Below, piece by piece: positions 11,185-46,813 of a stretch of DNA of 64,000 nucleotides. Position 1 is the stretch's first letter; every line of letters begins with the position of its first letter. The stretch lies in assembly GCA_043805415.1 (NCBI GenBank), contig JAZDHZ010000034.1, forward strand, positions 101,478 to 165,477. Reading direction: 5' to 3'. The DNA comes from Candidatus Omnitrophota bacterium (GTDB lineage: Bacteria; Omnitrophota; Gorgyraeia; B26-G9). The translations under genes and the position numbers were made by a program. The notes under the pieces were generated by a model that was given only the letters and a program-made list of their open reading frames with translations, was not told where the DNA came from and made no database searches.

Positions 11185-11185
11185 T

Positions 11186-14100
11186 ATGTCAGGAATTTTT
11201 AAAACTAAAATTTTAAATAGATTTCTCTGTCTGGTTATTTTGCAGATATTTCTTGTTTCCAATTTTTCCTGGGCCGCGGATGATTTGCGCGCGAATGATT
11301 TAGTTTATTCCAGCGCAACGCTTTCTCCTTCGCTTCAAATCAGCGCTGATGCGCTAAAACAATATTTTGCCCAATCCTTTGATTTAAAAACCGCGGCAAA
11401 TATAGATCCGGTTATAAAAGATATTTGCTTAGAGCTGTATAAGGCCAAGGATAAAACCACAAAAATAGAAGTTCTGGCCCTTGAGCAAGGCTATAGAGTA
11501 AAGATCAGGACTCAGAGCAATACGCCGCTTGTTTTACATTGGGGGTTTAATAATTGGCAAAAGCCTTTTAAGGAAATCTGGCCCCAGGCAGAGAATATCC
11601 GCACTTATTTTGATGAGCAGACCAAAGCAATGCGGACCATAGTCGAGGCTTCAGCTGAGGGAGATTATGTTTTTAATATTGATATCCCCTGGGAATTAGT
11701 TTCAGGAATAAACAATATTGATTTCACCTTCTTTTGCCCAGAAACCAAAGAATATAAGAAAGCAATTGAAAATAAGGATTATGTTGTGCCGGTTTCTAAT
11801 GTCTTGAACCTGGCCTTGGCGCGCTTGGCTGAAAATGCCGGGGCAGATGATCCTGAAAAAAAGCACGATCTGCTTAATTTGATAAACAAAAGGCTGGCTG
11901 CGGCCAAAGATTCAGCGGAAATAGATGAAAACAATATTCCTTTGTTTTATGACGCGCATGAAAATATTATTACCCAGATTGTGAAAAACAAAGCAGGAAT
12001 CAGAATTGATTTCTGGGTTGTAAGTAATGAGCCGCTGGTTTTACATTGGGGAATAAATGATTGGCAGTTGCCGCCAAAAAGCATTTGGCCGGACCGGACA
12101 TTATATAAAACCCGGGCTTATGAAAAAAAAGCAGTGCAAACTCAGATGCATTTGGCTTCTAAAGACGGTTTGTACCAGACCTCGATTTACATCCCTAACC
12201 AGAATTTAAAAGAAGTTAAAAACATCAAGTACAATGTACATTATCCAAATAATGGGTATTGGGATAATAATAATGAAGAGGATTATAGTTTATCGCTGCA
12301 AGCCCAGGATCTTATAGCCGCTTTGCTGCCTTACGCGACAGGCAGATTCGCTGCCCACATAAACGCCAAACAAGCTCGCGGCTTGTTAAAGAACATGGCG
12401 TTTTTCTACGCTGAGAATATGAATTACACTGATTTGTTAAAGCTTTTTCAGGGGATGGAAGGCATTGCCCCTGGGGATGATCTTGAAAAAAAAGATGTTT
12501 TGGGATTAATCCTTATTGCCAAATTAATGAACGAAGGCGCGGTTTGGGATAGTGACAAAGCTAAGATTATTATCAGTAAACAAAAGATCAGCGCCGCGAT
12601 AGCGGAGTTGATTGATAAACTTGACCCCTTAAGTGTGCAGTGGGCATTATATATATTCGGACTGCTTGACCCTTCCTGGGTCTCAATCCTTACGCATCAG
12701 CTTGATTATAAGCAGATATACCAGGATGTGCAAAACAGCAAGATCAAAGACCTGCCGAAATTTATCCAAGGGATAATCAACAGTTATGATGATTTGGAAG
12801 GAGCGCCGCAGGTTCTTTCCGCTGAGAGTATTGATGAAACCTGCCTGATCATAAAATTGAAATTCAATGATCAGATCATCAGTACAAAATGGGGCTATCC
12901 GACAAAACAGCAAAAGTATTATTATCAAAATGGGATTTTTGAACTAAGAGATTTCGGGGGAAATGAATTTTCGCCGGTAGGCCGTAAGCTTTCGCGTTAT
13001 GTGGATAAAGAAGTGATAAAAACCCAGATCTCCAGGCTGCGTGGCAAAGGCAAAAAGGCGATTGTTGACGGAATTTCCTGGCAGTCTCCGGAAGCGCTTA
13101 ATTCGGATAATTATATGTATTATCATCATAGTCTGCTGGAAAAAGACGCGGATGTCAGGAATTTATTGCTTTCCCGTGGTTCTTCCACGATCTTAGAACT
13201 TCCGGACGGGAAAAAAGCCTGGGTATTTCATCGGCCTGATTCATCAGATCAGCTTTCGCCTAATCTTAAATTCGGAACAAAGGCAGCGGAATACTGGAGA
13301 AATTATTGGCTGGAGTATTATAAATATTTTATCAATGAATTTGACGTGGATGGATTCAGGGTGGATTTACCCGGAGAGTTGAATCATCATGGAGATTATT
13401 CGGTATTTAAGAGTGTTTGTTTTGATATAGTGCGGTACGCGGCGGCAAAAGGCAAAAAAATATATTTTATTTTAGAAACATATCATGGGTACGCGAATAT
13501 CTGGGGCTGGGATGAGTTTTCCGCGTTAAATCATGATCCGCAGATAGCGCAATACGGCTATAAACCTTTCCGCTGTTATTATAAGCCGGTAATGACCAGT
13601 ATTTACCGCGGCAGCGCGTTTGATCTAAGAGCTGCTTTTGAACGCATAGCCGGCAGTGTTCAGGAATTGGTTATTTCAATTACTAATTTTGACGAGAAAA
13701 AAGCCGAGGATATTATTCCTGAAAAACAAAGGCTTAAGCGTTATATGGAGCTTTTGTATAATTTTGCCCGCGCGGGATTTGATGTAATGATTTATTTACG
13801 GGATTTAGGTCTGGGCGATATTTTGCCGATGTGCGGCGGAGATCGGGTTCTCTGGGGCGGAAAGCTGAGGGTTGTGGCGCATAAGCCGGCTACTCCGCGT
13901 CAGTTTCGGCAGAGATTGGAGCAAAGCACAGGCGATTTGCTTGAACAATCTCCTTTATATCAGGCGTTTAAAAAATCGCCGCAAAGCCCCTTATCGCGGC
14001 TGTTCTTCCGCGGCAATAAGTTAGTTTTTTATCAGCCGGGAAAAACTCCGGAAGTGTTTGATCTGGATAAGATGGCTAAGCCTGCTCCACCGGTAAAAGT

Positions 14101-15142
14101 TATGGACAGTGAGGAGGATATAAATATTTGGCTGCAGCAGCAGGTTTATTCATTAACAAATAATGAGCCGCAAACCCAAGCCTTAAGAGAAATTGAAAAT
14201 ACTTTAAAACGATTTAAGCATAGTGCAAGTGCAATGGCGGGAAAAGCTGTTTTGGCTCTGGTCTGTTCTGAGACTAAGAATTTCGCGGTTTGGGATCAGG
14301 CAAAAGGCCAAACTCAATGCCTGCGCATGCCGGTAAATAAAGTATTGGCCATAAAAAATGACCATGCTTTTGTTGTGGATATTAAACAAGCTGGCAAAAG
14401 CGAATCCCGCAGAATCCCGGCGCTGCAAATCAAGCAAAGCGGCAAATATTTGGCAATGGTTTTTGGCTTGGCTCCGGGTAAATACAGGTTTAATTTTTTG
14501 TGGCAGGAAAAACATGAAAACCAGGGCTGGGAAGAAGGCAATGGCTATGAGCTTGAAGTCAGTTCTCCGAAGACCGGGCAACCAGAGCTGGCGGTCTATA
14601 TCCCGCGTTTATCCGCTGAATATTTAAGGGATTGGGATGAAATGTTTTATCAGGCAAAAGATGCTGGCCGCAATCTGCTGACCGGAGATATGCTTACAAA
14701 GGGAATGCTTGAAAATATAGAATCCTCGATTGATTTTACCCTGCGTTATGAGTATGGCCGGGAGATTTTAGAACAAATTAAAGACAAAAAGAAAAAGCAG
14801 GTTTTCAATATTTTATATAATCAAATTTCGCAAAACCCGCGAGGCCGATACAGTTTACTGCATCATCACCATGAAAAAGATTTTTTTAAATTAGCGGAAA
14901 CTGTGCTTGAGAGTATCCCGGGTTTAGCAAGACCAGAGGCAGCCCCAATATGGCAATATTTGGACGCGCTCAAACAAGCGGATAATCCTGACCAAGGAGA
15001 ACAAAGCCAAATAGCCGTAAATATAAAACTGCTTGGTTTTATGTCTGGTTTGTTCGCGCAGATCGAAGCCCTGTCCGCGGCTAAACCCCTTGAGCTTTGG
15101 CTTAATATTGAAGCGGAGTTTTTGATTGGACAGGCAATATAG
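11186..15142 (+). CDS. giant secreted protein (about 1318 aa) with two tandem starch-binding-like repeats (LHWG(F/I)N(N/D)WQ motif, CBM45/CBM25-like) and a GH13-like region (DVDGFRVDLPGE, ILETYHGY); putative alpha-glucan-active enzyme
   Basis: The start is the ATG at 11186, 2 nt after the stop of the previous gene. The listed ORF start at 11120 overlaps that gene and has no RBS. Motifs were recognised by eye. The C-terminus ends in LIGQAI. Confidence 0.5.
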   Translation: MSGIFKTKILNRFLCLVILQIFLVSNFSWAADDLRANDLVYSSATLSPSLQISADALKQYFAQSFDLKTAANIDPVIKDICLELYKAKDKTTKIEVLALEQGYRVKIRTQSNTPLVLHWGFNNWQKPFKEIWPQAENIRTYFDEQTKAMRTIVEASAEGDYVFNIDIPWELVSGINNIDFTFFCPETKEYKKAIENKDYVVPVSNVLNLALARLAENAGADDPEKKHDLLNLINKRLAAAKDSAEIDENNIPLFYDAHENIITQIVKNKAGIRIDFWVVSNEPLVLHWGINDWQLPPKSIWPDRTLYKTRAYEKKAVQTQMHLASKDGLYQTSIYIPNQNLKEVKNIKYNVHYPNNGYWDNNNEEDYSLSLQAQDLIAALLPYATGRFAAHINAKQARGLLKNMAFFYAENMNYTDLLKLFQGMEGIAPGDDLEKKDVLGLILIAKLMNEGAVWDSDKAKIIISKQKISAAIAELIDKLDPLSVQWALYIFGLLDPSWVSILTHQLDYKQIYQDVQNSKIKDLPKFIQGIINSYDDLEGAPQVLSAESIDETCLIIKLKFNDQIISTKWGYPTKQQKYYYQNGIFELRDFGGNEFSPVGRKLSRYVDKEVIKTQISRLRGKGKKAIVDGISWQSPEALNSDNYMYYHHSLLEKDADVRNLLLSRGSSTILELPDGKKAWVFHRPDSSDQLSPNLKFGTKAAEYWRNYWLEYYKYFINEFDVDGFRVDLPGELNHHGDYSVFKSVCFDIVRYAAAKGKKIYFILETYHGYANIWGWDEFSALNHDPQIAQYGYKPFRCYYKPVMTSIYRGSAFDLRAAFERIAGSVQELVISITNFDEKKAEDIIPEKQRLKRYMELLYNFARAGFDVMIYLRDLGLGDILPMCGGDRVLWGGKLRVVAHKPATPRQFRQRLEQSTGDLLEQSPLYQAFKKSPQSPLSRLFFRGNKLVFYQPGKTPEVFDLDKMAKPAPPVKVMDSEEDINIWLQQQVYSLTNNEPQTQALREIENTLKRFKHSASAMAGKAVLALVCSETKNFAVWDQAKGQTQCLRMPVNKVLAIKNDHAFVVDIKQAGKSESRRIPALQIKQSGKYLAMVFGLAPGKYRFNFLWQEKHENQGWEEGNGYELEVSSPKTGQPELAVYIPRLSAEYLRDWDEMFYQAKDAGRNLLTGDMLTKGMLENIESSIDFTLRYEYGREILEQIKDKKKKQVFNILYNQISQNPRGRYSLLHHHHEKDFFKLAETVLESIPGLARPEAAPIWQYLDALKQADNPDQGEQSQIAVNIKLLGFMSGLFAQIEALSAAKPLELWLNIEAEFLIGQAI

Positions 15143-17668: not shown

Positions 17669-20600
17669 ATGTATTTTAAAAAGCTCGAACTCTTTGGATT
17701 TAAATCTTTCGTTGATAAAACAACTCTTATTTTTGAACCAGGCGTAACCGCGATTGTTGGCCCCAATGGTACAGGAAAAAGTAATATTTCTGACGCGATT
17801 AAATGGGTATTGGGAGAACAAAGTGCCAAGTCTATGCGTGGGGCAAAGATGGAAGATGTTATTTTTAATGGCACAGAAACCCGCCCTCCGGTAAATATGT
17901 CAGAAGTTTCGCTGACGCTTTCTAATGAAGAAAGAGTTTTGGCGATTGATTATGATGAAGTAACTGTAACCAGAAGGCTTTATCGCTCAGGAGAAAGTGA
18001 GTATCTTCTTAATAAAACCCCGGTTAGGTTAAGAGATATAAATGAACTATTAATGGGCACTGGCATAGGCACGGAATCGTATTCTTTGCTCGAGCAGGGC
18101 CGGATTGACGCGATTATTAGTTCCAAGCCGGAAGAACGCAGAGTGGTGTTTGAAGAAGCCAGCGGCATTACCAGATATAAGAAACAAAAAAATGAGGCAA
18201 TGCGCAAGCTGCAGGCAACAGAAGAAAACCTTTTACGGGTTAATGATATAATTGTAGAGGTTAATCGTCAGTTAAATTCCATAGCGCGTCAGGTAAGTAA
18301 AGCGCGCCGCTTTCAGGAAAATTTTGATGAACTTAAAACATTAGATACGCAGTATACATACCTTCAATATAAACAGCTTAAGGAAAAAAATGATTTACTT
18401 GCCAGTGAAGAGACTGCTTTTCATGCTGAGCAGGCGGGATTAGAAAAAGAGCTTGCTGTTTTTTCTGAAGAGTTTGACGCCTTAAAAGTAACCCTTTCTG
18501 AAGTGGAACATAATTACAGTCACTTGAACAATCAATTTGTCAGGACTACTTCGCAGATTGAGCAGAATGTTCACGCTGTGTCCATTAATAATGAACGCAT
18601 CCAGGAATTCAGCCAAAGAGTGCGGGATTATAACCGCGATCTGGAAAACTCCCAAAAGAAAATCAAAGAACTGCAGGAGCAGATAAACCAACTGCAAATC
18701 CGGATTTCCGCTTTTTCCGACGAGAAAAGCGCGAAAGAACTTAATTTAAATTTACGCCAGACAACAATCGCGGAAATTGAAAACCAAATAAAACTCGCGC
18801 AAAAATCCGGAGAAGAAAACCGGATCGTGGCGGTAAAATTACTCAGTGAACACGCGCAGATTAAAAATGAACTGGCCAAGCTTTCGGCGAATATCAGCAA
18901 TGCTAACGCGCGCTTATTGCGGCTTAATCAGGAAAAAGCGAAAACTAATCAGGAACGCGAGAAGATTGACGCGGAATTAAAAAGCAAAATAGCGGAAGTT
19001 GAAAATTTAAGAGGTAAGGTTAATAAAGAAGAAGGCGACGCTCAGAATCTTAAAAATAATTATGAAGAGCTTAATACTCAGATAAAAGAGCTGGAAGTAA
19101 ATATCCAAGACAGCAAGCAAGCTTTAGTCGGCTGTAAATCCCAGCTGGAAATGCTGGAAAGATTGAGCAAGGAATACGAATGGTTTTCCAGCTCAGTGAA
19201 ATCATTTATGCTCCAAAAAGAAAACTATCCCGAAGCTTTTGCCGGAGTCCATGATGTACTGGTAAATCTTATGGAGGTAAAGCCGGGATATGAAGTTTGC
19301 GTGGAAACCGCGCTAGCCGAATACTTGCAGGCCGTTGTTGTTGATAGCCGACAAGTGGCTTTAAGGCTGAGAGAATTTCTTAATCAGCATAATATCGGCA
19401 GAATTCGGTTTATTACTCTGGATTCAATTCCGCAAATAGCTAATCAGCAGTCTCAGATTGAAAATACAAAGAATTTTTTAGAAGTAATTACCTGCGATGA
19501 TAAATACGCGAAAGTTTTAGCGTTTCTGGTTAAGAACACTTTTATTTTACAAGAAAATATTTTTGACAATCCGTCAAATCCTTTGACTAATATCAAAGAT
19601 ACGCTGAGTGCTGAGCCAGATGCTTCTGGCTTGCTTGAAGCTGAGCTTTTGTTTTCTTTTAAAACAAACGCGGCCAATAGCGTTAAAATAGTCGGCGATT
19701 TTAATCGATGGAATGCTTCTTTTGACAGTGATCTGGAACGCAAAGACACGGAGCTTTGGCAAAAGGTTCTAAAGCTCGCGCCAGGACGCTATACTTATAA
19801 GCTGGTGGTTGATGGCCAATGGATCATTGACCCGAACAATCCGCTTAAAGAAATAGATGTAAACGGACATGAAAACTCAGTTATCGAAGTGCTGGCAAAA
19901 TCCCAGGATGCTTTGGTTGCTGAGGCTGATAAGCCGGCGGCATTTGATTTTAATTTTCTGGAAACGCTGGTGAGTATGAGCGGCGAGCTGCATTCAACCG
20001 CGGGATTAATCAGCCGGCCGGTTGCTGACCAGACAACAGGCCTGTTTTATCAAAAAGCAAAAATAAGGCAGCTTAAGCAGGAAAGTGTCGGCCTGGAACA
20101 AGCCGTAGTTAAATATAAACAAGAAATCGACACTAAAATCCAGCAGCTTAAGTTTGTGGAAACAGAATTTACTCAATTAAATGATGCTTTGCACGAAGAA
20201 AAGATTAGTCTGGCGAATCGGGACTCGGAAAAATCCAGTATTGAAATAAACCGGAAAAAACTTGTGGATGAGCTTTTAGTCATTGATCTGGAAATTGATG
20301 AAACAACTCTTGATGTTCAGGAGTTTGAAGAAAAAGAAGCGGCTAAGAGAGCTAGGCTGAGCATTGTGGATCAGGAAATAGTCGGCAATGAACAGACAAT
20401 GGCAAGTAATCATCAATTGATCGGGATAAAAAACAAGGAGCGGGAAGAGCTTTTAGTTATTATCGCGGAAATGAAAACAGAATTTTCTTTGCTCAATGAA
20501 CAGGAAGAATCTTTAAATCAGAGTTTTTCAATGCTGTATAATACGCTCAAAGAATTAACCCTGAACTCGGAAGAATTTGTCCGGTATAAGGATGAGAGTA

Positions 20601-21625
20601 TAAAGCGGATCGAGGCGCTGACGATTCAGGTAAGTGAACTGAATAAATCCACGCTTGTCCTTGAGCAGGAAAAAGAAGAAATCGGCATGTCTTTAGAAGA
20701 ATTTAAAGAAAAACGCGGTCAATTATTAAGTAAATTTGAAGATATCCAGAATAAAATAAAAGAAAAAGAAAACCGATTAAATTATACCAAGAATCGGATT
20801 CGCGATATTGATGTTAAAAAAGTCGAGATGAATTTTAAAACCGAGTCATTGGTAAATTCAGCGAGGCAGGCTTATAAAATCGAACTGGAAACCCTGGAAC
20901 TTGAATTGCCGGAAGATATAGACTGGCAGGCGCGGAAAGAACAGATCGATGGTTTAAAAAATAAGATTGACCGGATTGGGGCAGTTAATCTGGCGGCAGT
21001 AGAAGAAGAGGAAGAATTAAGACAGCGCGCTGACTTTCTTAATAGTCAAAGCGAGGATTTGTTCGCGGCTAAGCAGACATTAATGCAGGCAATCCAAAAA
21101 ATCAACCGCACAACTAAAGCGCTTTTTCTCGAGACTTTTGAGAAATCAAAAATCGCTTTTAAAGAGTATTTCAAGCTTTTATTCAGCGGCGGCGACGCGC
21201 AGCTTCTGCTTACCGAGGGAAAAGATGTTTTAGAATGCGGGGTGGAAATCGTGGTGCGGCCTCCAGGCAAAAGACTGCAAAGCATAACCCTGCTTTCCGG
21301 AGGCGAGAAAACGCTTACGGCAATTGCCTTATTGTTCGCGATTTTTAAGATTAAGCCAACACCGTTTTGCGTATTAGATGAAATGGATGCCCCCTTAGAC
21401 GAATCGAATATTGATCGGTTCACCCGGGTTTTACAGGAATTTTTGAAAAGCTCACAATTCATAATTATTACCCATAATAAAAAGACTATTTCCATGGCGG
21501 ATGTTATGTATGGGGTAACAATGGAGCAGCCGGGTATTTCTCGGCTGGTGAGTGTGAAATTCAGCGAATTTAAAGACTCGGATAAATTAAAACAAGAGCT
21601 TATTCCTGAAGAAGCTATAATCTAG
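17669..21625 (+). CDS. smc: chromosome segregation protein SMC carrying an inserted AMPK-beta-type glycogen-binding (CBM48-like) module in the hinge region
   Basis: N-terminal Walker A FKSF...IVGPNGTGKSNI, long coiled coils, hinge (GVHDVLVNL...GRIRFITLDS), C-terminal LSGGEKTLTAIALLFAI...VLDEMDAPLD signature. Confidence 0.9.
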   Translation: MYFKKLELFGFKSFVDKTTLIFEPGVTAIVGPNGTGKSNISDAIKWVLGEQSAKSMRGAKMEDVIFNGTETRPPVNMSEVSLTLSNEERVLAIDYDEVTVTRRLYRSGESEYLLNKTPVRLRDINELLMGTGIGTESYSLLEQGRIDAIISSKPEERRVVFEEASGITRYKKQKNEAMRKLQATEENLLRVNDIIVEVNRQLNSIARQVSKARRFQENFDELKTLDTQYTYLQYKQLKEKNDLLASEETAFHAEQAGLEKELAVFSEEFDALKVTLSEVEHNYSHLNNQFVRTTSQIEQNVHAVSINNERIQEFSQRVRDYNRDLENSQKKIKELQEQINQLQIRISAFSDEKSAKELNLNLRQTTIAEIENQIKLAQKSGEENRIVAVKLLSEHAQIKNELAKLSANISNANARLLRLNQEKAKTNQEREKIDAELKSKIAEVENLRGKVNKEEGDAQNLKNNYEELNTQIKELEVNIQDSKQALVGCKSQLEMLERLSKEYEWFSSSVKSFMLQKENYPEAFAGVHDVLVNLMEVKPGYEVCVETALAEYLQAVVVDSRQVALRLREFLNQHNIGRIRFITLDSIPQIANQQSQIENTKNFLEVITCDDKYAKVLAFLVKNTFILQENIFDNPSNPLTNIKDTLSAEPDASGLLEAELLFSFKTNAANSVKIVGDFNRWNASFDSDLERKDTELWQKVLKLAPGRYTYKLVVDGQWIIDPNNPLKEIDVNGHENSVIEVLAKSQDALVAEADKPAAFDFNFLETLVSMSGELHSTAGLISRPVADQTTGLFYQKAKIRQLKQESVGLEQAVVKYKQEIDTKIQQLKFVETEFTQLNDALHEEKISLANRDSEKSSIEINRKKLVDELLVIDLEIDETTLDVQEFEEKEAAKRARLSIVDQEIVGNEQTMASNHQLIGIKNKEREELLVIIAEMKTEFSLLNEQEESLNQSFSMLYNTLKELTLNSEEFVRYKDESIKRIEALTIQVSELNKSTLVLEQEKEEIGMSLEEFKEKRGQLLSKFEDIQNKIKEKENRLNYTKNRIRDIDVKKVEMNFKTESLVNSARQAYKIELETLELELPEDIDWQARKEQIDGLKNKIDRIGAVNLAAVEEEEELRQRADFLNSQSEDLFAAKQTLMQAIQKINRTTKALFLETFEKSKIAFKEYFKLLFSGGDAQLLLTEGKDVLECGVEIVVRPPGKRLQSITLLSGGEKTLTAIALLFAIFKIKPTPFCVLDEMDAPLDESNIDRFTRVLQEFLKSSQFIIITHNKKTISMADVMYGVTMEQPGISRLVSVKFSEFKDSDKLKQELIPEEAII

Positions 21626-24466: not shown

Positions 24467-25600
24467 ATGCAGCCTATTGGTATCTATGTCCACATTCCCT
24501 TTTGTGTTAAAAAATGCGGTTATTGCGGCTTTAATTCTCTGGTTGCCAACAGCGCCGGGCAAATAAAAGCATATCTTAAGGCTTTATTCCTGGATATTCA
24601 ATTATCCGCTAAAAACCGGCAAGCCTTTGCGGTGGAAAGTATTTATATCGGAGGCGGGACGCCTTCTATATTAGAGGCAAAAGACATTGCTCATATCATA
24701 GCTGAAATTAAACAGTGTTTTCCGGTAGCAAGAGAATCAGAGATTACAATTGAGGTAAATCCGGCCAGTGTATCCAGGCAAAAGCTTCTCGAGTATAAAA
24801 AATCCGGGATTAATCGGATCAGCATGGGAGTCCAATCGTTTAAACCTAAGAATTTAAAATTTCTCGGCAGAGCGCACAGCGCTTTGGATGTGTTCAAGGC
24901 GCTTAAAATGCTTAAAAACCTGGAATTTAATAATATCAGTATTGACCTGATTTATGGCTTACCGGATCAGTCTTTAAAAGACTGGGAGGATGATTTAAAT
25001 CAATTCATTGATTGCGAGCTGAGTCATTTATCGCTGTATGATTTAACCATTGAAAAGGGAACGCCTTTTTATGAAATTAAAAATACGCTGTTGATCGCGG
25101 ATAATGATTTGCAGGCTTTAATGTATAAGAAAGCAGATGGTTTATTAAAAAAAAACCAGTTTAACCATTATGAGATTTCCAGTTTCGCTAAAAAAGGCAG
25201 GCAGTCAAAACACAATCTGATATATTGGAATAACTTAGATTATATTGGCTTGGGAGCAGGCGCTTATTCATATATTAATCGCCAGAGGTTTAGCAAAGCA
25301 AATGATCTTTATCTTTATGAACAGCAGGCAAAAAAAAACAAGTTTGAGCATTATGATTCAGAAAAGCTTAGTTTGGTAAAGCTGATGCAAGAAACATTAA
25401 TCCTCAGGCTAAGGCTGTTAAAAGGCTTTAGGCTTAAGGATATAGAGAATAAGCTGAATCATAAGATCAGGCAGGATAGTATGAACATTTTAAATGAATT
25501 TGTTAGGCAGGGCTTTATTTTGCTTCATAATAATCACTATAAACTGAGCAAAAAAGGTTTATTGCAATATGATACTATTGCCAGTGAACTATTATCATAG
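24467..25600 (+). CDS. hemW: radical SAM heme chaperone HemW / oxygen-independent coproporphyrinogen-III oxidase-like protein
   Basis: N-terminus IYVHIPFCVKKCGYCGFNS (CxxxCxxC radical SAM motif in HemN/HemW context); length 377 aa. Confidence 0.8.
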   Translation: MQPIGIYVHIPFCVKKCGYCGFNSLVANSAGQIKAYLKALFLDIQLSAKNRQAFAVESIYIGGGTPSILEAKDIAHIIAEIKQCFPVARESEITIEVNPASVSRQKLLEYKKSGINRISMGVQSFKPKNLKFLGRAHSALDVFKALKMLKNLEFNNISIDLIYGLPDQSLKDWEDDLNQFIDCELSHLSLYDLTIEKGTPFYEIKNTLLIADNDLQALMYKKADGLLKKNQFNHYEISSFAKKGRQSKHNLIYWNNLDYIGLGAGAYSYINRQRFSKANDLYLYEQQAKKNKFEHYDSEKLSLVKLMQETLILRLRLLKGFRLKDIENKLNHKIRQDSMNILNEFVRQGFILLHNNHYKLSKKGLLQYDTIASELLS

Positions 25601-25853
25601 AGCAAATAAATTCCAAATGACAAATGTCAAATGACAAAAATTGAAAGCAGAGAACAGAAACCGAGGGATGATCCTCCTTTGCCAAGGCTATGGAGGACAG
25701 ATGGACGATTGATGTGTTAGGATGAAGGACGAAAGAGCAGAAACAGAGAGTAGAAATTTGTTATTGTCCTTGTGTCTTGTGACTTTGTGTCTTGAGTCTA
25801 AATTGCTTGATATTTTTTTTGGTTCATGGTATAAATAGAACACTCAATATTTT

Positions 25854-25939
25854 GCGGGGATGGTGGAATGGCAGACACGCTAGCTTGAGGGGCTAGTGGG
25901 AGCAATCTCGTGAGGGTTCAAATCCCTCTCTCCGCACCA
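25854..25939 (+). tRNA. tRNA-Leu (anticodon GAG) with long variable arm, CCA encoded
   Basis: Acceptor stem GCGGGGA/TCTCCGC. Anticodon stem CTAGC/GCTAG with loop TTGAGGG. Long variable arm. T-arm GGTTCAAATCC. Terminal CCA. Confidence 0.85.
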
Positions 25940-25968
25940 AAAAACTCCTGAAATGGAGTTTTTTTGCT
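25940..25968 (+). terminator. Rho-independent terminator after tRNA-Leu (AAAAACTCC-tgaaat-GGAGTTTTTTT)
   Basis: 6-9 bp stem followed by a 7-T run. Confidence 0.7.
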
Positions 25969-26023
25969 ATTTATGATGATTTTTTCCTCGAAGCAAGTTT
26001 TTTTAAAAAATTCTTTGCCAGCC

Positions 26024-26052
26024 TTGTAATTTAAAAAAACCTATGGTATACT
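26024..26052 (+). promoter_or_regulatory. sigma70-type promoter TTGTAA-17nt-TGG-TATACT
   Basis: Near-consensus hexamers with 17-nt spacer and extended -10. About 55 nt upstream of the leader element at 26110. Confidence 0.55.
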
Positions 26053-26109
26053 TGCACTCCGTTGTAGCTGAATCTCAATATGTAACTATTAGTTAAAATG
26101 AAATATTAA

Positions 26110-26193
26110 GGGAATGCGAAGTTGAAACGTTCTTATTTATTAAGGCGTTTACGAAGACCCCTACTTCCCCCGTTCTTCGCATTCCTTTTTTTT
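26110..26193 (+). ncRNA. structured 5'-leader element copy A: long hairpin (GGAATGCGAAG...CTTCGCATTCC) with an inner CGAAGA/TCTTCG stem, conserved CCCCTACTTCCCC loop segment and a terminal U8 tract; putative attenuator/riboswitch-like leader
   Basis: Perfect 11-nt inverted repeat flanking about 53 nt, followed by TTTTTTTT. Lies between the promoter at 26024-26052 and the ATG at 26245. A second copy is at 27178. Confidence 0.5.
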
Positions 26194-26244
26194 ATTTGTT
26201 TGAGATCTAACACATTTAAACCAAAGTATTTATCCAGATAAGCT

Positions 26245-27012
26245 ATGAAAAATCCGCTGCATAACAAAATAATCTGTATGGTTTGCTTATTTATTGCAAT
26301 CAGCAATACTGCTTTACCGGTTTTTGCTTTGAATAATCCGGAATCAAGCCGAAAATATTGCCTTTCCCCGTTTTTACGTATAATCAATTCTGATTTTCAA
26401 TCCAGATTTGAGAGTCTAAACTCTGACTTATTAGACAATAATTTAAACATGCCAGGGGATCTGAAAAGCCGCGCGCTGGTAGTTGGCAGGACAAGCATAA
26501 TTTTTAATAACAAAGAAATGAGCTTTTTTGAATTAACAAAAAGCCTAAACCTTTTACTTGCCAATGATCGATTTACTTACTTTGCCAGAATTGAAAAAGA
26601 TATGGTTAAATATGCGGCATTAAGCACTGTAGAGCAGCTTTTACTTGCTTTAAAGCAGTCAGAATTATCAGAATATGCTGAGCAAATTGATATTATTCTG
26701 GCAATTTTGCATCTTTCCGCTGAAGACGCGGCAATTATCCTTAGCGGCATTGAACCTTTGCAGCAAAAATCAATTACTAATCTTACTGATAAGGCCTGGA
26801 CGAATAAATTCAGAATGAAACGATTCAGCTTAACCATGGGCTATGAGCTTGATATTGCTAAAGCTTGGTATGTTAAAACATTGGAAACAGAGGCTGAGGA
26901 AAGACAGTGGTGGCATGCTATGTGCCGCAATTCAATGCCTATGAATATGTTTAAGGGTTTGAATGCTGATTTGCAGAAAAAAAATCATGGCTTAATTGAT
27001 GCTTCAATTTAA
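26245..27012 (+). CDS. hypothetical secreted protein (C-terminus ...DASI)
   Basis: Signal peptide; no recognisable domain. Confidence 0.45.
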   Translation: MKNPLHNKIICMVCLFIAISNTALPVFALNNPESSRKYCLSPFLRIINSDFQSRFESLNSDLLDNNLNMPGDLKSRALVVGRTSIIFNNKEMSFFELTKSLNLLLANDRFTYFARIEKDMVKYAALSTVEQLLLALKQSELSEYAEQIDIILAILHLSAEDAAIILSGIEPLQQKSITNLTDKAWTNKFRMKRFSLTMGYELDIAKAWYVKTLETEAEERQWWHAMCRNSMPMNMFKGLNADLQKKNHGLIDASI

Positions 27013-27045
27013 TTCTATTCATGGCTTAAAAAAATCCTCTGAACA

Positions 27046-27074
27046 TTGAAATTCCTGGAATAATATGGTATAAT
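27046..27074 (+). promoter_or_regulatory. sigma70-type promoter TTGAAA-17nt-TGG-TATAAT
   Basis: Consensus hexamers with 17-nt spacer and extended -10. Confidence 0.6.
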
Positions 27075-27177
27075 TCTAATGAAGTAAGGAAGTTATGGAA
27101 AAACGGGGGTTTTGGGGCTTTTTTATCGTCTAAAATTAAACAATTTTAAAAAGTAATTTAAAACTATATGTAAAATA

Positions 27178-27257
27178 GGGATACGAAGACCAGAATCGCC
27201 TTATCCCCTAAGGTGATTATTGGCCCCTACTTCCCCTGTCTTCGTATCCCTATTTTT
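27178..27257 (+). ncRNA. structured 5'-leader element copy B: hairpin GGGATACGAAGAC...GTCTTCGTATCCC with an inner CCTTA/TAAGG stem, the same CCCCTACTTCCCC segment, and a terminal U-tract
   Basis: Perfect 13-nt inverted repeat, followed by TATTTTTT. Lies between the promoter at 27046-27074 and the RBS/ATG at 27275. Confidence 0.5.
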
Positions 27258-27274
27258 TAAAAAGGAAGGTTTAA

Positions 27275-28969
27275 ATGCATTGTATTTTTTTAAAAAACTT
27301 AGCAAGAGGATTGTTAGTTAATACTGGTTTGCTTGGTTTGCTGGTATTAGCGCAGCTGGTATTACCAGCAAGTTATTTGCACGCGCAGCAAAGCACTAGT
27401 TTTCTCAGCACCAAGATAGAAACATTGGAAGGCCCGAAGCTAAAGAAAACCGCCAAAGTAGAGCAAGTACTGAGGAACCTGGATATTCCCGCGGAATTAG
27501 GGTTTATTAAAGAAATCCACGTGCCCAAGACTCCGACAGAAAAAATGATCATCAATATCCAGGATCTGCATTGTAATTATAAAGCCCAGAAAAACATAGC
27601 CGGCATACTTGAATATTTAACCCAGACCTATGGCTTAAAACTAATCAGCGTAGAAGGCGGATCCGGGAAAATTGATACCAGTTTTTATCAGGATTTACCG
27701 GATGAAAAAATCAAAGAACAAGTCGCGGATTATTTTTTACGCGAAGCCAGAATAAACGGCACAGAATACTTTGCCATTACCACTGATCGGTTGATCCGCT
27801 TATATGGAGCGGAAGATGAAAAATACTATGATAAAAACCTGGACGCGTTTATGCGGGCCCTGCCGGCAAGGGAAATTATTCTGGAGACAATCGCTGTATT
27901 AGAAAATGATCTGAACATTCTAAAAAACAAAAGCTATAATAAAAAGCTCAGAGAACTTGATGATCATATCGTGGCCTATGACAATGGAGAAATGGGATTT
28001 GAAGACTATATCCAATACATATCCAGATTATCCGCGGAACAAAACGTAAAGCAGGAATTTGACCAGGTAAACCAGCTGGTAGAAAGCATTAAATTCAAAG
28101 ACTCGATAAGCATAGAAAAAGCCGAAGCCCAGAGAAAAGAACTGATTGATCATCTGACCAGTAATTTGTCTCGATACGAGATGGAAGAATTTTTAAAAGC
28201 AACCGTAGAATATAAAGCAAAAACCATGGACAATCTGACCTATCACAGCACCTTGCAGAAACTATACAATCAAATGGATAAAAAGAGCCTGACTTTAGAT
28301 CGGAAATGGCCGGATTTAAATGGATACATTGAATACTTAAAAAGACATGAGACCTTGGATAAATTCGCTTTATTTACCCAGATCGACAAACTAGTGGAAC
28401 GGATAAAAAACAGTTTATATACCAGCTATACGCAAAAGACATTAGATTATAATTTAAAGATCGTCAGACTAGCCAGAAGCTTATTTTCCACCAAGCTGCT
28501 GAATAAAGATCTAACTTTAGTCAGCAAATACCACACAGACTTTAATGCTAAAAAGATGAAGACATATATTCAAAAAGAAGCCAAGCGGTTAAAGCTTGAT
28601 TTAGCTATACCGGATGATGAGCGGTTAAAGCAAATGGAAGAGACTTTACCGGCAGTAGAAGATTTTTATCGCTATGCTTCGAAGCGCAATGATATCCTGG
28701 CCAATAATACTTTGGACGGCATGGCTAAAGAAAACGAAGACATCGGAATCCTGATCACCGGAGGATTTCATACTGATGGTATAACCGATTACTTAAAAGA
28801 CAAAAGAATAACTTATATTGTAATCGTGCCCAAGATCGAAGAGCTGGAAACAGATGATACCCGCTATATTAATGCTTTGCAGGGCAAGAAAACGCCGTTT
28901 GAGGAAATGATTGAAAAAGAAGATAAATCAGCAGTAACTCCAGAAACTGCTGATTCAGCAACCCCTTGA
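27275..28969 (+). CDS. hypothetical secreted/anchored protein, 564 aa
   Basis: N-terminal hydrophobic signal anchor; RBS AAGGAAGG; no recognisable domain. Confidence 0.45.
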   Translation: MHCIFLKNLARGLLVNTGLLGLLVLAQLVLPASYLHAQQSTSFLSTKIETLEGPKLKKTAKVEQVLRNLDIPAELGFIKEIHVPKTPTEKMIINIQDLHCNYKAQKNIAGILEYLTQTYGLKLISVEGGSGKIDTSFYQDLPDEKIKEQVADYFLREARINGTEYFAITTDRLIRLYGAEDEKYYDKNLDAFMRALPAREIILETIAVLENDLNILKNKSYNKKLRELDDHIVAYDNGEMGFEDYIQYISRLSAEQNVKQEFDQVNQLVESIKFKDSISIEKAEAQRKELIDHLTSNLSRYEMEEFLKATVEYKAKTMDNLTYHSTLQKLYNQMDKKSLTLDRKWPDLNGYIEYLKRHETLDKFALFTQIDKLVERIKNSLYTSYTQKTLDYNLKIVRLARSLFSTKLLNKDLTLVSKYHTDFNAKKMKTYIQKEAKRLKLDLAIPDDERLKQMEETLPAVEDFYRYASKRNDILANNTLDGMAKENEDIGILITGGFHTDGITDYLKDKRITYIVIVPKIEELETDDTRYINALQGKKTPFEEMIEKEDKSAVTPETADSATP

Positions 28970-32560: not shown

Positions 32561-32602
32561 ATATTCTCTAGGGCAATATGATTGGGTAAATGGAACAAGA
32601 TA

Positions 32603-35600
32603 ATGAATTATAAAAAATCAAAATTCAGGCTAATCTTTAGAATAATCTCATTAGTGCTTATCCAGGCATTTCTGGTGCTTGATTTTGCCTGGGCAATAGG
32701 CGGAGAATTTCCTATTGCTGATAAAATTTCTCAGGCTGCTACGCTTGCCCCGAAAATTAGTTTAAACACTCAGGAAGTCTGGGATGCTTATGTTTACAGT
32801 TCGCAAAATTCAGCTAAGATCAATGAACTTTCCTTACCTTCTGATCAGCCGATGGTTAATATTCCCAACCAATCTCCCCTGATCAGCCGGAGAGCGTTTT
32901 TCAAAACTGTTGGGCAAAAGGTTATTGGGGCTGCCGCGGTATTAACCGGAGCGGATCTGATATTGTCGGCGCCGGCAGAAGCCAGAGACTTAACCGTGGC
33001 TTTAAGCGATTTAGTGATCAATTTTGATAAAGGGGTTGCTGAAGCGGAGTTAAATAAATATATCGCGATTATTGAAGCTCAGGGTTTTAAAGAGTTATAC
33101 AGTTTAGAAAAAAAACAAGCGCAGACATTAATCAGAATTAAGGGGTTATTCCCGCTGAACGCGGAAAAATTATCTTACGCGCTTAATGCTCAGGCTAAAG
33201 CCAGAGGTCTGGCCAAAGGGTTTGTGGTCACAGCTAGTGACGCGAGCTGGAAGCAATCGCTTACTTATCGGAGCATGCAGGCTTTTGCGAATAAAGTAGC
33301 GCGTCTTTCAGCCAGCCTGGGATTCGGGGAGATCGATTCTCCGCAGCTTATTGGGCTTTATGAGGGGATTACCTGGGTTGAGAGTAAATTTAACCAATGG
33401 GAAACCGATGCCCAGGGCAGAATCAGACCAGTAAGGTCATATACCAATGCTATCGGAGTTACCCAGGTTATAGAATCTCAGGCTGTTAAGCAGATTGCCA
33501 GGTGGATAGTAACGCATAAGGGTGGAATATCCCGCTACGCGGAAATCATGAATGAGCTGGAAAGAATGATTTCCTCTGATAGTGAAAAGCTAAAGAAATC
33601 ACTCAAGGCGAATAAGAAATTCGGGGAAGAAGCCGAAGCCCTGAAACAGTTTAATGTCTATGCTGATTTCGCGGCTTATAAAAATGCCGGATCAGATATT
33701 GAAAAACAAAAACAGATAATTCAACGAATTCACAGAAAGATCAATAGTAATCCTAAGCTTATCGGCGTGAATTTATATTACGCGCTTGCTGTTTGGCAGT
33801 ATTTACAAAACAGGAATAATCTGCGAGCGGGAGTTACCGCTGAGCTTGCCGAATCAATGGGGCAAACCGGACAAGGGCTGACCAGAAAAAATCTTCCGCT
33901 TATTGAATCCGGTTCCGGGGCATATCAGCCAATGGATCTGGAAAAAGCCGGCTTGCAGTTTGAGAGTGATTATTTCCGCTTAAATCTGCTTTATCAAATG
34001 ATTAATCCCGAGAAGATTGCTGAGCTTTTGCAAGGCGCGGAAAGTAAAATATTAGTCAACACCATGGAATACTTATCGCGGCAGATGATGACAAAAATAG
34101 GCAACCAAAAGCTTGGCTATACTTATCTTACGCTGAACTGGGATCGATACCGCCGCCTGGAACTAAGGAAAAATAAAAATAATCAATATGAGTTTACCGA
34201 AAGGCCTTTAAGTTATTTTCAAAATAAGCCTAATGGTTTTTCCGTGAGTCTTGCCGCGGCAGCTTCATATAATTCCGGGACTGGCAGTGTGGACGATGCT
34301 TTGCTGAATTTTGGTAATGCCGTAGACGCGAATAATCTTCCCTTATGGATTAAAAATATGATCGGAGCCAATCCCCAAAATATTCGGGAGCCGATAAATT
34401 ATTTAAGGGTTTTTCTGGAAGATAAGTTTAATAATACCGGAGATCTCTCGGCCCAAGAGCAAAAAATTAAAAACGAGCTTATTGCCGAACGCTATAAACG
34501 CGTTTATAAAATCCAAGACCGATTGCTGGAAAAAAGAGCTTTAATCCACAAAAACAAGGTTCGGATATACGCGGCTTATCGGCGCGATGATGGTTTTGAT
34601 TATAAGCTGGCTGCCTGGGTTGCCCAGATCGCGGGCAGTGATTATGTGGATAGTTTTTTAAGAACCCATGGATTGGATAAAAAATGGCAAGAGGAAATTC
34701 TTAAATCTTCCCAGACACTTGATATTTTAGCACCGGCTTTGGCAGATGTGAATTCGCCGGGATATGCTGCCGCGGTAAATATCCGGCGGTATTTAGATTC
34801 AAAACAGCTGGCTTCTTTGGCTAAGCGGCAAGAAGCCTTTAAGTCTAAAGAACAGGCCCGGATCGCGAGAATTGAACTGGCTAAACAAATATCTAAGGAA
34901 AAACAATGGCAGAAAACCCTGGAGGGAATGACCAGCTGGGCAATGCGTTCCACGGTCGGGGTTGCTTCGCTTGGCGCGGCCGGCGCGATTGCCTGGATTA
35001 TAAACCGCAGGGTCAAGCTGGGTAAAAAACCAGTGCCTTCGCTTATCTATCGGCTGCCATTGCAGGGTTTTTGGATTCTGGGATTTGTTACTGTCCGGCT
35101 GTTCGCGATAGTTGGAAAAATTCTGTTTGGAACCGGTAAATATGTATTCAGCTTTTTTGCTAAAGCAAAACCGCGGATAAATAAACCAAGAAGCGCGCTT
35201 CTTGCCGATCAAAAGGTAGTTAGAAATAACCGGGTTAAACAAGCGGAAAACAGATATAAAAATAAGAACCGCTTTTTTTCAATAGCTAATTTAAAAAAAC
35301 TGATTCTGGGATCAATCTTACTGGCAATAATTGCCTGGCCTTTTGCTTCCCCGGCTTTTTCTCACGCGTCGCAAAAGCAGGCACAAGCTCCTCCGGCAAT
35401 TAGTTTAAGCCAAGAATTTAAAAAAGGCTTAATTGAAATCAGTAAGAAAAGTGACCATAAGCAGCTGAATGCTCAGGGCGAGCTTACCACAATAAAAGCT
35501 AATTTAAAAAAGAATCTTGAATTCAGCAATAGCAAAGCCCGGGAAAGGGTAGAGCAGATCAATCAGTTAGCGGAAAGAAATTGGCAAAAAGCGTATGTTA

Positions 35601-38600
35601 ATGGCGAATTAGATGAATACATAACAAAAAGAGGGCAGTCAGAAGATGCTCTTGCGATTGGCAAGGCGCTGTTTATTTTGCAAAGCGCTGCTCCGGAAAT
35701 TTATCAAGGTTTAAAAAAATATAATGCTTCTATATATCTGGCAGAGATCCCCTTCTATGGTTACGCGCGCGGTTCACGAGTATTTGGGCTTGGCGGCAAA
35801 CCAATGGTATTTGTAAATAAAGATTTTCTGAATAATCCTTTCAAAATCGCGCTTGTTTTATCTCACGAAGGTCATCACGCGATTCTTTTGCCCAAAGATT
35901 TACTGGAATCCGCGCTGCGGTATAATTTTTTTACTTTTATCAGGGATGTATTGTACAGTATTCCCCAGGGGGAAAAAGAAGCTTTCGAGATCCAGGCGGG
36001 AGTGGCCAGAGTTTTTTATATTGAGCCGATAAAAGGAAATATGTCTTATGACCCGCTTGATGTGGAAATTGCTTATGGTAGTCAGAAATGGCAAATAGTT
36101 GGGTTGGATATTTTAGGTACCGGCTTGTTCAATGTTATTCCTTTGATTGCCGGATGGTTAATCCTAAAGTTTTTTATGAATAGCAGCCGCGCTGGAAAAA
36201 GCCGAGATTATCAAAGATCAGGCAGCGGGGGATTGTCTAATCTGATAAACAGCAATTCAAGAAATAACAAGCGTCTGATTAGAAAAGGACGCGGTAAACG
36301 CAAAGGGAATTTCTTTTGGTCAATTATTTTAATCCCTTTGCTTGCTTTTCAATTCAGCAGTTTTCTTAGTCCCGCGATTACTCAAGCAAGTGATGTTTTT
36401 ATCCAGCCTCAGGAGAAAACAGAAATAACCGAGTATAAAAATGAACAGATTATAAATCCGATCCTTGGCACTGATCTTAAAGTAAACTCCCATTTTGGCC
36501 CACAGGAAGGAAAGCATAATAACGCGTTAGCTGATTGGTCCGAGGCGGTGATCAGAGGAGTTATTCAGCCCAACGCGGATATAATCCATGTTGATTTTCA
36601 TGCTGATGATTCCGGCGCGGTAATGGACGCGGATATGCTGGCCTTGAACGAAGTTAAGAATTTAAAAACTTCTCAGGAAAAAATCCAGGCAGTGCGGGAT
36701 ATCGCGGCTCATCTGAGAATAGATTCGTTTTATTACCCGGCTTATTTAACCGGACCAACCGGTCAATCAATATTGGGCACAACCTTTTGGGTTCGTCCGG
36801 AAGCAGAATGGCAGGGCGCGGCGAAAGAGCAATATATTGTCAGTGCTCCCTATGGAACGTTCCCCACGGATCATCCTGAGAAATATCCAAATGACAAGAG
36901 GATCAAAAGGTATGAGCTTAATGCCGATGATTTATCTTTAGTCGGGAAAAATGCTCAGTTAAAAAATGGGTTTATTCTGGACATTGATCTGGATTATTTT
37001 ACTTTGCATCGGGAAGATATGAATTGGGTTTATATGCGGGAGCTGCTTGAAAGAAAAGATGAAGCTTCTCAGAAATTAGCAAAGTCGATTCTTAAGACAG
37101 TCCACTATCAGCCGACCAGGCAGCAGCTGCAAAAAAATATTGATTTGTTTATTGACCAGCTCGCGAAGCTGCATGAACGCGGTATAGACCCGGGAATCAT
37201 TTCTGTTTTTGAATCACCGAATTTTACAGCTTATGCTGATGCTAAATGGGTAAATGACCAGTTAGTAAAGGGGTTCAAAGCTATTTACGGCAAAGGCTCT
37301 GCTTTAGCCGCGAAAGACCAGAAACCAAAGAGCGCGGCAAGCTCTGGCTGGAAAAAAATCTCAATCATGGGATTGGTGTCTGTAATCTCCGCGTCTTTTG
37401 CTAATTTGTTTTCCGTGGCTAATCTCTGGGCCATGGAAAATGGAGCGGATAAGGCTTTTGCTTCCTCTGATTTTAAATCAATAGTAACCTACCTTATCAC
37501 AATCGCCTTAATTGGCTTTTTAGTTAAATCGGGATTAAAAGCGCTTAGTTTAGCTAAACAAAAAAACGCGGAACAGCAGGCCGCGGTGATTGTTCCCAGC
37601 CAGGCGGCTTTGGATAAATTAAAAAAATTAGACACTGACATCAGCGCTTTATTTGCTCAAGGGAAAACTCAGGTTATTATCGCCTTTGACGGTCCCTCCG
37701 GCGCGGGCAAGACAACATTGGCTAATTATATTAAGGCAGTTGGTATTGCCGGAATACAGCCATCTGAAATACAGGTATTGTCGCGTGATGATTACGCGGT
37801 TGGCGGTGATTATAATGAGGCGAATATCGTGATTTTAGAAAAAATCTGGCATCGCGGAAAATTAGTTATTGTTGAGGGCAATGGAATCCAGTGGGCCAGT
37901 GCGGTATTAGCAGCAGATGCCGCGTATGCTAATCCGGATATATTTGTTAAAATAACCGCTGCTGAACAGCTGCGCAAACAAAGGCTATTAGAAAAAGGCT
38001 TGTCAGAGTCAGCGGCAAGTGAGCGGATTAGAACAGCATCTGGTCCTGATTCCGGTTTGTTTGATATTATTATTCAAGATCCTTATATCGAGGTTAACAG
38101 CTTGCGCAAGTCCGCGGAATATATAAAGGCTGAGAGCATATTGCGTTCATATCCTAATGACTCCGGCCTTGCTTTAATTCGTGAATTTGTCTTAGATCAA
38201 ATGCTTAGTTCTGATCGGCGCGGTATTATTGTTTATCATAATGAGCGCCATCTTAATGAGTTGTTTGAGTTTTTTGATGCAATATCAAAGCATTTACCGT
38301 TTAAAAATAAAGCCAGCGCCGAGCGTTTGATCCGCATGGCGATTTATCTGCATGATCTGGGCTACTTTTATTCAGAAGATGGATTGCTTATTCCTGGGCA
38401 TGAACAAAGAAGTAAAGATGAGGTTCTTGAATTTGTTAAGAAAAATCCCGGAATATTGTCCGCGGTTGAAGTCCAGTCGATTATGTATCTGATTGATAAA
38501 ACGCAGCTTAAAACCGGTGACGCGATTAAAAATGAAATCAGCGATGATAATAAAACCTATGACTTGCTGGATCGAATTAATAACGCGCAAGAATCAGGTT

Positions 38601-46275: not shown

Positions 46276-46731
46276 ATGGAAAAAAAAATCATTGCGTCTA
46301 ATAAGCGGGCAGCGCATCGCTATGAGATTATTGAAAAAATCGAAGCTGGCATTGAATTGCAAGGCACAGAGGTTAAATCACTCAGAGCCAATCAGGTTGA
46401 CTTAAAAGACAGCTTTGCCAGAATTGACGGCGGACAGATTTTTTTGCATAGTTTATACTTAAGTCCCTATGAAAAAGCAAGTTATAATAATGCTGATCCC
46501 AAAAGAGTCAGAAAGCTTTTACTGCATAAAAAGCAGATTACCAAGCTGTTTGCGAAAATGCGGGAAAAAGGCTATACTTTAATAGCTTTGAATATTTACT
46601 TTAATGATAAAGGCCGGGCAAAAGTCGAACTGGCTTTGGCCAAAGGCCGCAAATTGTACGATCAGCGGGAAAAGATTAAAGATAAAGAAACTGAACAGCG
46701 TTTGCGCAAGATAAGCAGCATTCGGAAATAA
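46276..46731 (+). CDS. smpB: SsrA-binding protein SmpB
   Basis: NKRAAHRYEIIEKIEAGIELQGTEVKSLRA...; about 150 aa with a basic C-terminal tail. Confidence 0.9.
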   Translation: MEKKIIASNKRAAHRYEIIEKIEAGIELQGTEVKSLRANQVDLKDSFARIDGGQIFLHSLYLSPYEKASYNNADPKRVRKLLLHKKQITKLFAKMREKGYTLIALNIYFNDKGRAKVELALAKGRKLYDQREKIKDKETEQRLRKISSIRK

Positions 46732-46748
46732 ATGGCTAATGGTCAATG

Positions 46749-46813
46749 GTCGATAGTCAATAGTTTTTACTTTAAACTATAAGCCATAAGCTATTAGCTA
46801 TCGACTTTTTTTT
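46749..46813 (+). terminator. imperfect long hairpin (GTCGATAGTCAATAG...CTATTAGCTATCGAC) followed by T8, between smpB and the tmRNA 5' end
   Basis: Inverted repeat with two central mismatches and a U-tract ending 6 nt before the tmRNA 5' end. Confidence 0.4.

Follow-up and report, generated by a model that had tools for sequence, protein, structure and literature searches.

The window analysed here, 64,000 nucleotides (nt; 64 kb) from a Candidatus Omnitrophota bacterium (GenBank assembly GCA_043805415.1, contig JAZDHZ010000034.1, positions 101,478 to 165,477 of the forward strand), contains a pair of related hairpins situated between a tRNA-Leu(GAG) gene and an operon that starts with the gene for a secreted protein of 564 amino acids (aa), with one further open reading frame (ORF) of 255 aa between them. 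The first hairpin (type A, copy 1) was located at 26110-26193 by folding, an alignment of 18 orthologues, pair counts and a covariance model, and the second (type B, copy 2) at 27178-27258 in the same way using 16 aligned orthologues; both lie on the + strand, as do the other features of the locus given below. In copy 1 the outer stem P1 consists of GGGAAUGCGAAG (26110-26121) and CUUCGCAUUCC(U) (26175-26186), the inner hairpin P2 covers 26125-26150, and an unpaired C-rich 13-mer, CCCCUACUUCCCC, is found at 26158-26170 (14 nt when the motif is counted to 26171), with a U8 run at 26186-26193. Copy 2 has its P1 in GGGAUACGAAGAC (27178-27190) and GUCUUCGUAUCCC (27238-27250), its P2 at 27194-27218 with a UCCCC loop (27204-27208), a C-rich 13-mer identical to that of copy 1 at 27224-27236 and a U6 run at 27253-27258. 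All the parts described in an earlier annotation of the DNA made without database searches (the sequence-only reading), i.e. the two copies, the outer stem, the inner hairpin, the common C-rich segment and the terminal U-run, were present when reading 25500-27900. The fold energies are -27.3 kcal/mol for copy 1 (z -4.5 against shuffled sequences) and -38.7 kcal/mol for copy 2 (z -9.8). The exact 13-mer occurs at just these two sites in the window, and covariance models built from relatives matched only the same two copies, with 101 bits for copy 2 and 93 bits for copy 1 on the + strand, as against 32 and 18 bits on the - strand.

Relatives were gathered in three ways: by a scan of species-representative genomes (one genome per species, the query being the 13-mer followed by a T-run), by a scan of metagenomes and by a route through the neighbouring proteins; L-numbers such as L034 are the labels of the related loci compared. 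The genome scan gave 104 loci, 13 of them with the full hairpin architecture (11 labelled Omnitrophota, one 'PVC group' and one a 'Planctomycetia' bin), and in several of its loci paired matches lie 184-290 nt apart. The metagenome scan added 10 real loci, and the total stands at 37 copies in ~20 loci, all from Omnitrophota or PVC-group genomes or from metagenome contigs. The C-rich motif of 13-14 nt is identical in all 37 copies. Three of these (A and B of L127 and A of L128) were reached through the neighbouring protein, independently of the motif, and nevertheless carry the exact CCCCUACUUCCCCC. The genes of the window itself, part of an Omnitrophota metagenome-assembled genome at NCBI, bear locus tags of the form V1747_078xx. 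The A/B pair is found once per genome, at a syntenic locus, wherever the sequence was examined. No copy was detected in the viral contigs scanned, nor was any element found at loci whose proteins are only distantly homologous to the 564-aa protein or to the TPR-peptidase (L119, L121-L125), which indicates a family restricted to a clade and tied to the tRNA-Leu locus rather than to a protein family.

A search of the whole window with Rfam 15 at gathering thresholds revealed only a transfer-messenger RNA (tmRNA, 46820-47252) and the tRNA (25854-25936), and a permissive scan of 25900-27400 returned matches at chance level, the best overlapping one having an E-value of 0.16 to a microRNA model. 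Full-text literature searches on small RNAs, noncoding RNAs or RNA motifs of Omnitrophota/Omnitrophica brought up no description of such an RNA, and a preprint on giant genes does not mention RNA elements. The two hairpins are members of a previously undescribed RNA family of one Omnitrophota clade. The proposal of a candidate new structured RNA, for which an Rfam scan and a search for further copies had been suggested, is thereby upheld by the copies recovered, the covariation described below and the lack of an Rfam match. Known kinds of element were also compared. No Rfam T-box model matches, and the genes that follow encode secreted proteins to which no function is assigned; no match to the 6S clan appears even at E-values up to 10, and whereas 6S RNA is an independently encoded rod of ~180 nt with a closing stem, a central bubble and a terminal loop, here the last 80 nt make a fold of their own, with a ribosome-binding site (RBS) and an ORF immediately behind it. 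An attachment site or integration hotspot for the variable insert between A and B was rejected as well, A and B being conserved even where they are spaced by 184 nt.

Pair statistics for P1 and P2 were calculated from 18 type A and 16 type B aligned sequences, with 500 shuffles and slid alignments as controls. The stems are paired to 97.8% in type A and 98.1% in type B, with 6 and 7 pairs, respectively, changed on both sides, while the slid controls show ~34-54% pairing (about 45%). For type A, four of the five measures were equalled or exceeded in 0 or 1 of the 500 shuffles and the fifth, further pair types, in 5; for type B no shuffle came up to the alignment in any measure. Across the stems 44 G·U pairs were counted versus 2 A·C, and this excess together with the covariance scores of the + strand indicates that the selected object is the + strand RNA and not a DNA palindrome. 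The type A orthologues are closer to each other than to the type B of the same genome. The duplication is therefore old and both copies have been maintained, and A and B are, as judged from these alignments, paralogous members of one RNA family. The residues of the internal loop are highly conserved while the stems covary, and in P1 the sequence itself, not only the pairing, is near-identical in A and B across species (GGGAURCGRAG). The P2 loop of type B, CUUAUCCCCUAAG, and the UUGG before the motif are almost invariant, and no search had selected for either. CCCCUA occurs twice in type B, in the P2 loop and in the internal loop, and the CCCC of the motif is preceded by GG in type B versus GA in type A.

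Copy 1 is preceded by a promoter with an extended -10 box, TTGTAA-17-TGgTATACT (26024-26052), identified by a promoter scan with a start predicted near 26059, and a promoter of the form TTGnAA-17-TGnTATA(C/T)T was found before hairpin A in every locus with enough upstream sequence. The 5' part between promoter and hairpin is poorly conserved and varies from 12 to ~180 nt. Behind P1 the 18 aligned copies and those of L127 and L128 all have a U-rich tail, with 5 or more U in the next 8 nt, although it is interrupted in L103 and L111. Stable stem-loop and U-tract, followed by a new promoter or gene, fit an intrinsic terminator, and after it comes in most genomes another promoter (that of B or of an inserted gene) and no ORF; an ORF directly behind A without a recognisable promoter is seen in this window only. 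The tRNA-Leu(GAG) upstream (25854..25939, detected by ARAGORN and Rfam and placed upstream of A in 10 related loci) has a terminator-like hairpin of its own at 25939-25964 (terminator scan). With its own promoter, its U-rich tail, the next promoter on its 3' side and a tRNA that has its own terminator, A stands as an independent unit. It combines what is expected of a small RNA, a predicted promoter, a U-rich end and an invariant unpaired motif of 14 nt, and type A is accordingly classified as a stand-alone small RNA with a predicted transcript. This RNA would be ~135 nt long, with a variable 5' part, a hairpin displaying the unpaired CCCCUACUUCCCCC and an end at the intrinsic terminator. A role of type A as a 5' untranslated region (UTR) leader was rejected, since it is the next promoter and not an ORF that follows A in most loci.

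Type B is placed differently, in the 5' UTR between a predicted promoter and an ORF, the location of a cis-acting leader element. The promoter scan identified TTGAAA-17-TGgTATAAT (27046-27074), matching the consensus in 11 of 12 positions, as the promoter of this leader and its operon, with a start predicted near 27081. Of the 16 leaders scanned, 14 have the corresponding TTGAAA-17-TGGTATAAT at 142-160 nt before the C-rich motif. L074 and L118 contain this box a few bases upstream of the position chosen by the automatic scan, and L051 has a weaker TATAAA in its place. The near-consensus promoters reported in the sequence-only reading were recovered by the scan in both cases, and its distances from hairpin to start codon agree with ours (~51 nt for copy 1 and ~16 nt for copy 2); the sole inaccuracy in that description is the spacing of ~55 nt from promoter to hairpin, which does not apply to copy 2, starting ~103 nt past its -10 box. 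Hairpin B closes a leader of ~190 nt, and in 11 of 17 loci 18-24 nt separate its end from the start codon.

The leader has a constant order: a purine-rich stretch, a G-tract, a U-run, A(U/C)UAAA and UUUUAAAAG, with hairpin B 20-33 nt further on. In this window the G-tract is GGGGG-UUUU-GGGG-C (27105-27118) followed by U6 (27119-27124), and across the leaders it consists of 5-11 G, 2-8 nt and 3-5 G, the U-run coming 0-3 nt later. The conserved module UUUUAAAAAG (27144..27153) keeps a gap-free, fixed distance from the G-tract in 16 leaders. The three modules UUUUUAUU, A(U/C)UAAA and UUUUAAAAG have exactly the same spacing, with no insertions or deletions, in 27119-27157 and in 15 related leaders. 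RNAalifold, applied to the 16 gap-free leaders, gave no consensus structure for the modules that separate the G-tract from hairpin B. The U-run and UUUUAAAAG could form a local helix in every leader, although by A and U only and without a consensus from RNAalifold, and this helix may be a mundane explanation of the U-run. A leader peptide starting from the AUG at 27094 was rejected for lack of conservation (L046 has AUA and L015 AUG-UAG). In several loci the C-rich motif could also pair with the Shine-Dalgarno sequence behind it, which was judged unspecific, since these sites are G-rich anyway.

A run of U5-U8 follows hairpin B in this window and in L034, L046, L026, L051 and L015 and is missing in L080, L118, L127, L059, L066, L074, L103/L109, L108, L115 and L025. 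About half of the species thus have no such run, which argues against termination at the hairpin as the conserved mechanism. Transcription attenuation, suggested in the sequence-only reading for both copies, therefore survives in part: copy 2 is an element of a 5' leader and terminator-shaped here, so that attenuation at this copy in this genome is plausible from its sequence, but type A is not a leader in general, and for type B the suggestion does not extend to the species without a U-run.

The G-tract of the leader, overlooked in the earlier description, is complementary to the loop UUGGCCCCUACUUCCCC. A duplex between leader and UUGGCCCCUACUUCCCCC was predicted in 15 of 17 leaders, with energies from -20 to -27 kcal/mol and z from -3.5 to -7.6; in this window the energy is -23.4 kcal/mol. 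The site keeps a constant position 53-85 nt before P1. The GG that is specific to B lengthens the pairing with the G-tract, A having GA there. In L034 and L051, the leaders without the G-tract, the neighbouring gene for the 564-aa protein is lost too, while a perfect hairpin and a U8 run are kept, and their B copies look like a second stand-alone small RNA. In the window the tract is the only occurrence of GGGG..GGG..TTTTT and the best non-self site for the loop of A, and it ranks first as a target of the A loop in 7 of 11 loci. Nested folding preferred the long-range helix together with P2 to P1 in 7 of 13 leaders; in the remaining ones a fold with the 5' arm of P1 blocked lies within 3-15 kcal/mol, the helix between G-tract and C-rich motif being present where inspected. 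A longer anti-hairpin pairing, extended from the 5' purine-rich module to the 3' arm of P1, was no better than in shuffled sequences (z ~0).

From complementarity and conservation we infer a mimicry switch, its direction and the part that A plays in it. The leader would exist in two states. With the hairpin closed (P1 and P2), it would act in this genome, where it carries U6, as an attenuator 16 nt before the start codon; when the long-range helix between G-tract and C-rich loop forms, P1 would be loosened and transcription or translation proceed. The A RNA, presenting the same C-rich strand and having no G-tract, would compete in trans for the G-tract of the leader, and with the tract occupied by A the leader would be driven towards the closed hairpin, its off state, following an anti-antisense or mimicry logic. 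The predicted output in this genome is repression by attenuation, while in species without a U-run it would be translational or exerted via the stability of the mRNA. As a whole this switch is the best-supported of the models considered, and it is put forward as a tentative one that may well prove wrong.

A number of points weigh against it. The promoters, the RNA ends and any attenuation are predicted features. The energy margin of the G-tract over chance sites in coding sequences is small (~1-5 kcal/mol), and the C-rich motif never varies, so that its pairing with the G-tract draws no support from covariation. Moreover, the pairing hits the loop of the hairpin and not the stem, so both structures might coexist as a pseudoknot, and with no U-run after B in about half of the species termination is not the output everywhere. 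The AU-rich modules, which keep a fixed spacing between G-tract and hairpin, fall outside the model, and the shared P1 sequence, the invariant UACUU spacer and the B loop CUUAUCCCCUAAG go beyond what pairing with the G-tract alone would explain, giving a hint of an additional partner, which may be a protein or further RNAs.

Such a partner could be a dedicated RNA-binding protein recognising the P1 sequence and CCCCUA, with B controlling the operon, A serving as a decoy or sponge and the G-tract masking the site in B. The near-sameness of P1 in A and B, the repetition of CCCCUA in B and the invariance of the whole 13-14 nt motif including its UACUU spacer, although the facing spacer of the G-tract varies freely, all speak for this; yet no gene for an RNA-binding protein is conserved at the locus, A offers only 1-2 candidate sites, unlike known sponge RNAs, and the precise complementarity of G-tract and loop is left without explanation, and we consider the proposal unlikely. 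The coexistence of both structures leads to a different reading, also rather doubtful, in which P1, P2 and the G-tract helix form a constitutive pseudoknot, keeping the mRNA stable or fixing its level of translation, while A seeds on other G-rich RBSs in the genome. By a geometric estimate pairing directed to the loop is topologically compatible with P1; the hairpin is retained as a stand-alone unit in L034 and L051, which have neither G-tract nor gene, small RNAs that act on many targets typically have an invariant seed, and the RBSs of these genomes are G-rich (GGGG, GGAGG, GAAAGG). The best A target in the 64 kb scanned is, however, the B leader itself, and the adjacency of A and B in every genome suggests a functional link. 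One more role is conceivable for A, which would supply the missing upstream half of an intrinsic terminator in trans when its loop pairs with the nascent G-tract just before the conserved U5-U9 (0-3 nt): RNA polymerase would be stopped ~45 nt into the leader, and the motif of B would lock the G-tract in transcripts that escape. We know of no naturally split intrinsic terminator completed by a small RNA, and this possibility is regarded as decidedly improbable.

The view taken in the sequence-only reading, in which both hairpins are ligand- or protein-sensing attenuator leaders (aptamer plus terminator) of secreted-protein genes, agrees with their terminator shape and their position between promoter and ORF in this window, as well as with highly conserved internal loops and covarying stems. 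It is improbable in the light of the related loci: no ORF lies between A and the next promoter in most genomes, B is without a U-run in about half of the species, A has no G-tract, so that A and B are not the same aptamer, and no Rfam family matches. Each genome has just one syntenic locus, with a single A and a single B, and this further speaks against a riboswitch or T-box-like leader of a whole regulon. That the hairpins have no regulatory role at the RNA level, being nothing more than Rho-independent terminators or a palindrome that serves as DNA operator or repeat element, is hardly credible, even though a GC-containing stem followed by a U/T run is found at both sites here. The tRNA already has a terminator-like hairpin and each of the two elements is separated from the genes before it by a strong predicted promoter, and this also speaks against the refuting case named in the sequence-only reading, that the hairpins are merely terminators of upstream genes; the motif, invariant in 37 of 37 copies, and the B loop, conserved in the 16 aligned, go beyond the needs of a terminator. 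A symmetric DNA site or operator palindrome is excluded by the ratio of G·U to A·C pairs, and a dispersed repeat, either a repetitive extragenic palindrome (REP) or resembling a miniature inverted-repeat transposable element (MITE), is ruled out with 2 copies in 64 kb, both at the one syntenic locus of each genome, and none in viral contigs.

The mimicry switch has parallels in known systems. In the rpoS leader of E. coli activation by DsrA, RprA and ArcZ follows an anti-antisense mechanism; there, as in the switch proposed here, an upstream strand of the leader pairs with a downstream segment, while a small RNA acting in trans with the same sequence as that downstream segment competes. Here, however, the small RNA reproduces a complete hairpin with P1, P2 and loop and not one strand, its gene lies directly upstream of the presumed target, competition would concern a terminator-like hairpin, namely its loop, instead of the RBS, and the predicted effect is repression. 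The small RNAs RsaE/RoxS of Firmicutes (Rfam RF01820) have C-rich seeds and, like type A, their own promoter, an intrinsic terminator and unpaired CCCC loops able to pair with G-rich or Shine-Dalgarno sites; they belong to another phylum and show no similarity in sequence or to the covariance models in the Rfam scans, and in the present family the motif is located in the internal loop of a long hairpin, with a paralogous copy inside an mRNA leader that carries a complementary G-tract. Antisense-RNA-mediated transcription attenuation is known from the plasmids pT181 and pIP501, where, as proposed here, a small RNA acting on the nascent leader decides the formation of a terminator hairpin, but the plasmid regulators are antisense RNAs of the opposite strand with full complementarity, in contrast to a chromosomal same-strand paralogue with a match of 13-19 nt and a U-run that is not present in all species. 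With classical attenuators and riboswitch platforms the leader shares a promoter-proximal strand (the G-tract) that is the alternative partner of a terminator-shaped hairpin before the RBS, and it differs from them in that no ligand or leader peptide is evident, that there is one locus per genome and that the loop and not the stem is paired.

When the surrounding genes were compared, a conserved order was found: a TPR/peptidase_MA gene, a HemN-like radical-SAM gene, tRNA-Leu(GAG), A, a variable insert, B and the orthologue of the 564-aa protein gene, with a spacing from A to B of 184 nt to ~3.2 kb. The insert of this window is the ORF for the secreted 255-aa protein (26245..27012, from the ORF list), for which tblastn gave no match in the related loci. 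The promoter scan recognised no promoter for this ORF itself, while other loci do show promoters after A, and it may be read through from A. The ORFs inserted between A and B (26245-27012 and those of L015, L059, L080, L103, L115, L118 and L127) encode a signal peptide followed by (C)LSPxhxI and are otherwise unrelated; a similar TISPAIQV is present in the 1100-aa protein encoded at 29258. Judging from its sequence, (C)LSPxhxI may be a sorting or processing signal of a fast-evolving family of secreted proteins.

Behind hairpin B an RBS, GGAAGG (27264-27269), precedes the first gene of the operon, that of the 564-aa secreted protein (27275-28969, ATG at 27275), the core of which has a TraB/ChaN/EreA/HopBA1-like fold with a large helical insertion and invariant His/Glu/His. 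The genes for the 1100-aa protein, a 2986-aa protein and a GH116 glycosidase follow, the giant 2986-aa ORF (32582-41542) matching cNMP-binding and UPF0489 domains and, weakly, GGDEF. In L119 and L123 the genes for distant relatives of the 564-aa protein adjoin giant genes of 7,803 and 32,476 codons. No gene for an RNA-binding protein is conserved beside the locus.

Elsewhere in the window, an SMC protein (1318 aa, 17669-21625) contains an AMPK1_CBM/CBM48 glycogen-binding module in residues 667-744, beside the hinge, and the same insertion was found in the SMC of the related metagenome-assembled genomes L126, L128 and L129. At 6256-15142 there is an overlap of 65 nt between two very long ORFs, one of 1642 aa and one of 1340 aa. 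The gene smpB is directly followed by the tmRNA (46276-47252; tmRNA 176 bits), an ordinary arrangement that confirms a normal bacterial chromosome context.

The Omnitrophota are uncultivated, very small and probably host-dependent or predatory bacteria, and to our knowledge almost nothing is known of their gene regulation; the two hairpins are a first candidate pair of regulatory RNAs for this phylum. The operon behind B, encoding a secreted enzyme of the TraB/ChaN/HopBA1 fold and very large proteins, is of the gene kind thought to mediate cell contact. A bioRxiv preprint (10.64898/2026.06.07.730766) reports 176 new complete genomes of the phylum. Being ~85 nt long and highly conserved, the elements are accessible to tests in vitro or in E. 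coli, for which no culture of the organism is needed. The design, in which a small RNA is a full structural copy of the hairpin in a neighbouring leader and a G-tract in that leader matches both, is unusual, and it would make the pair a compact and testable example of regulation by RNA mimicry.

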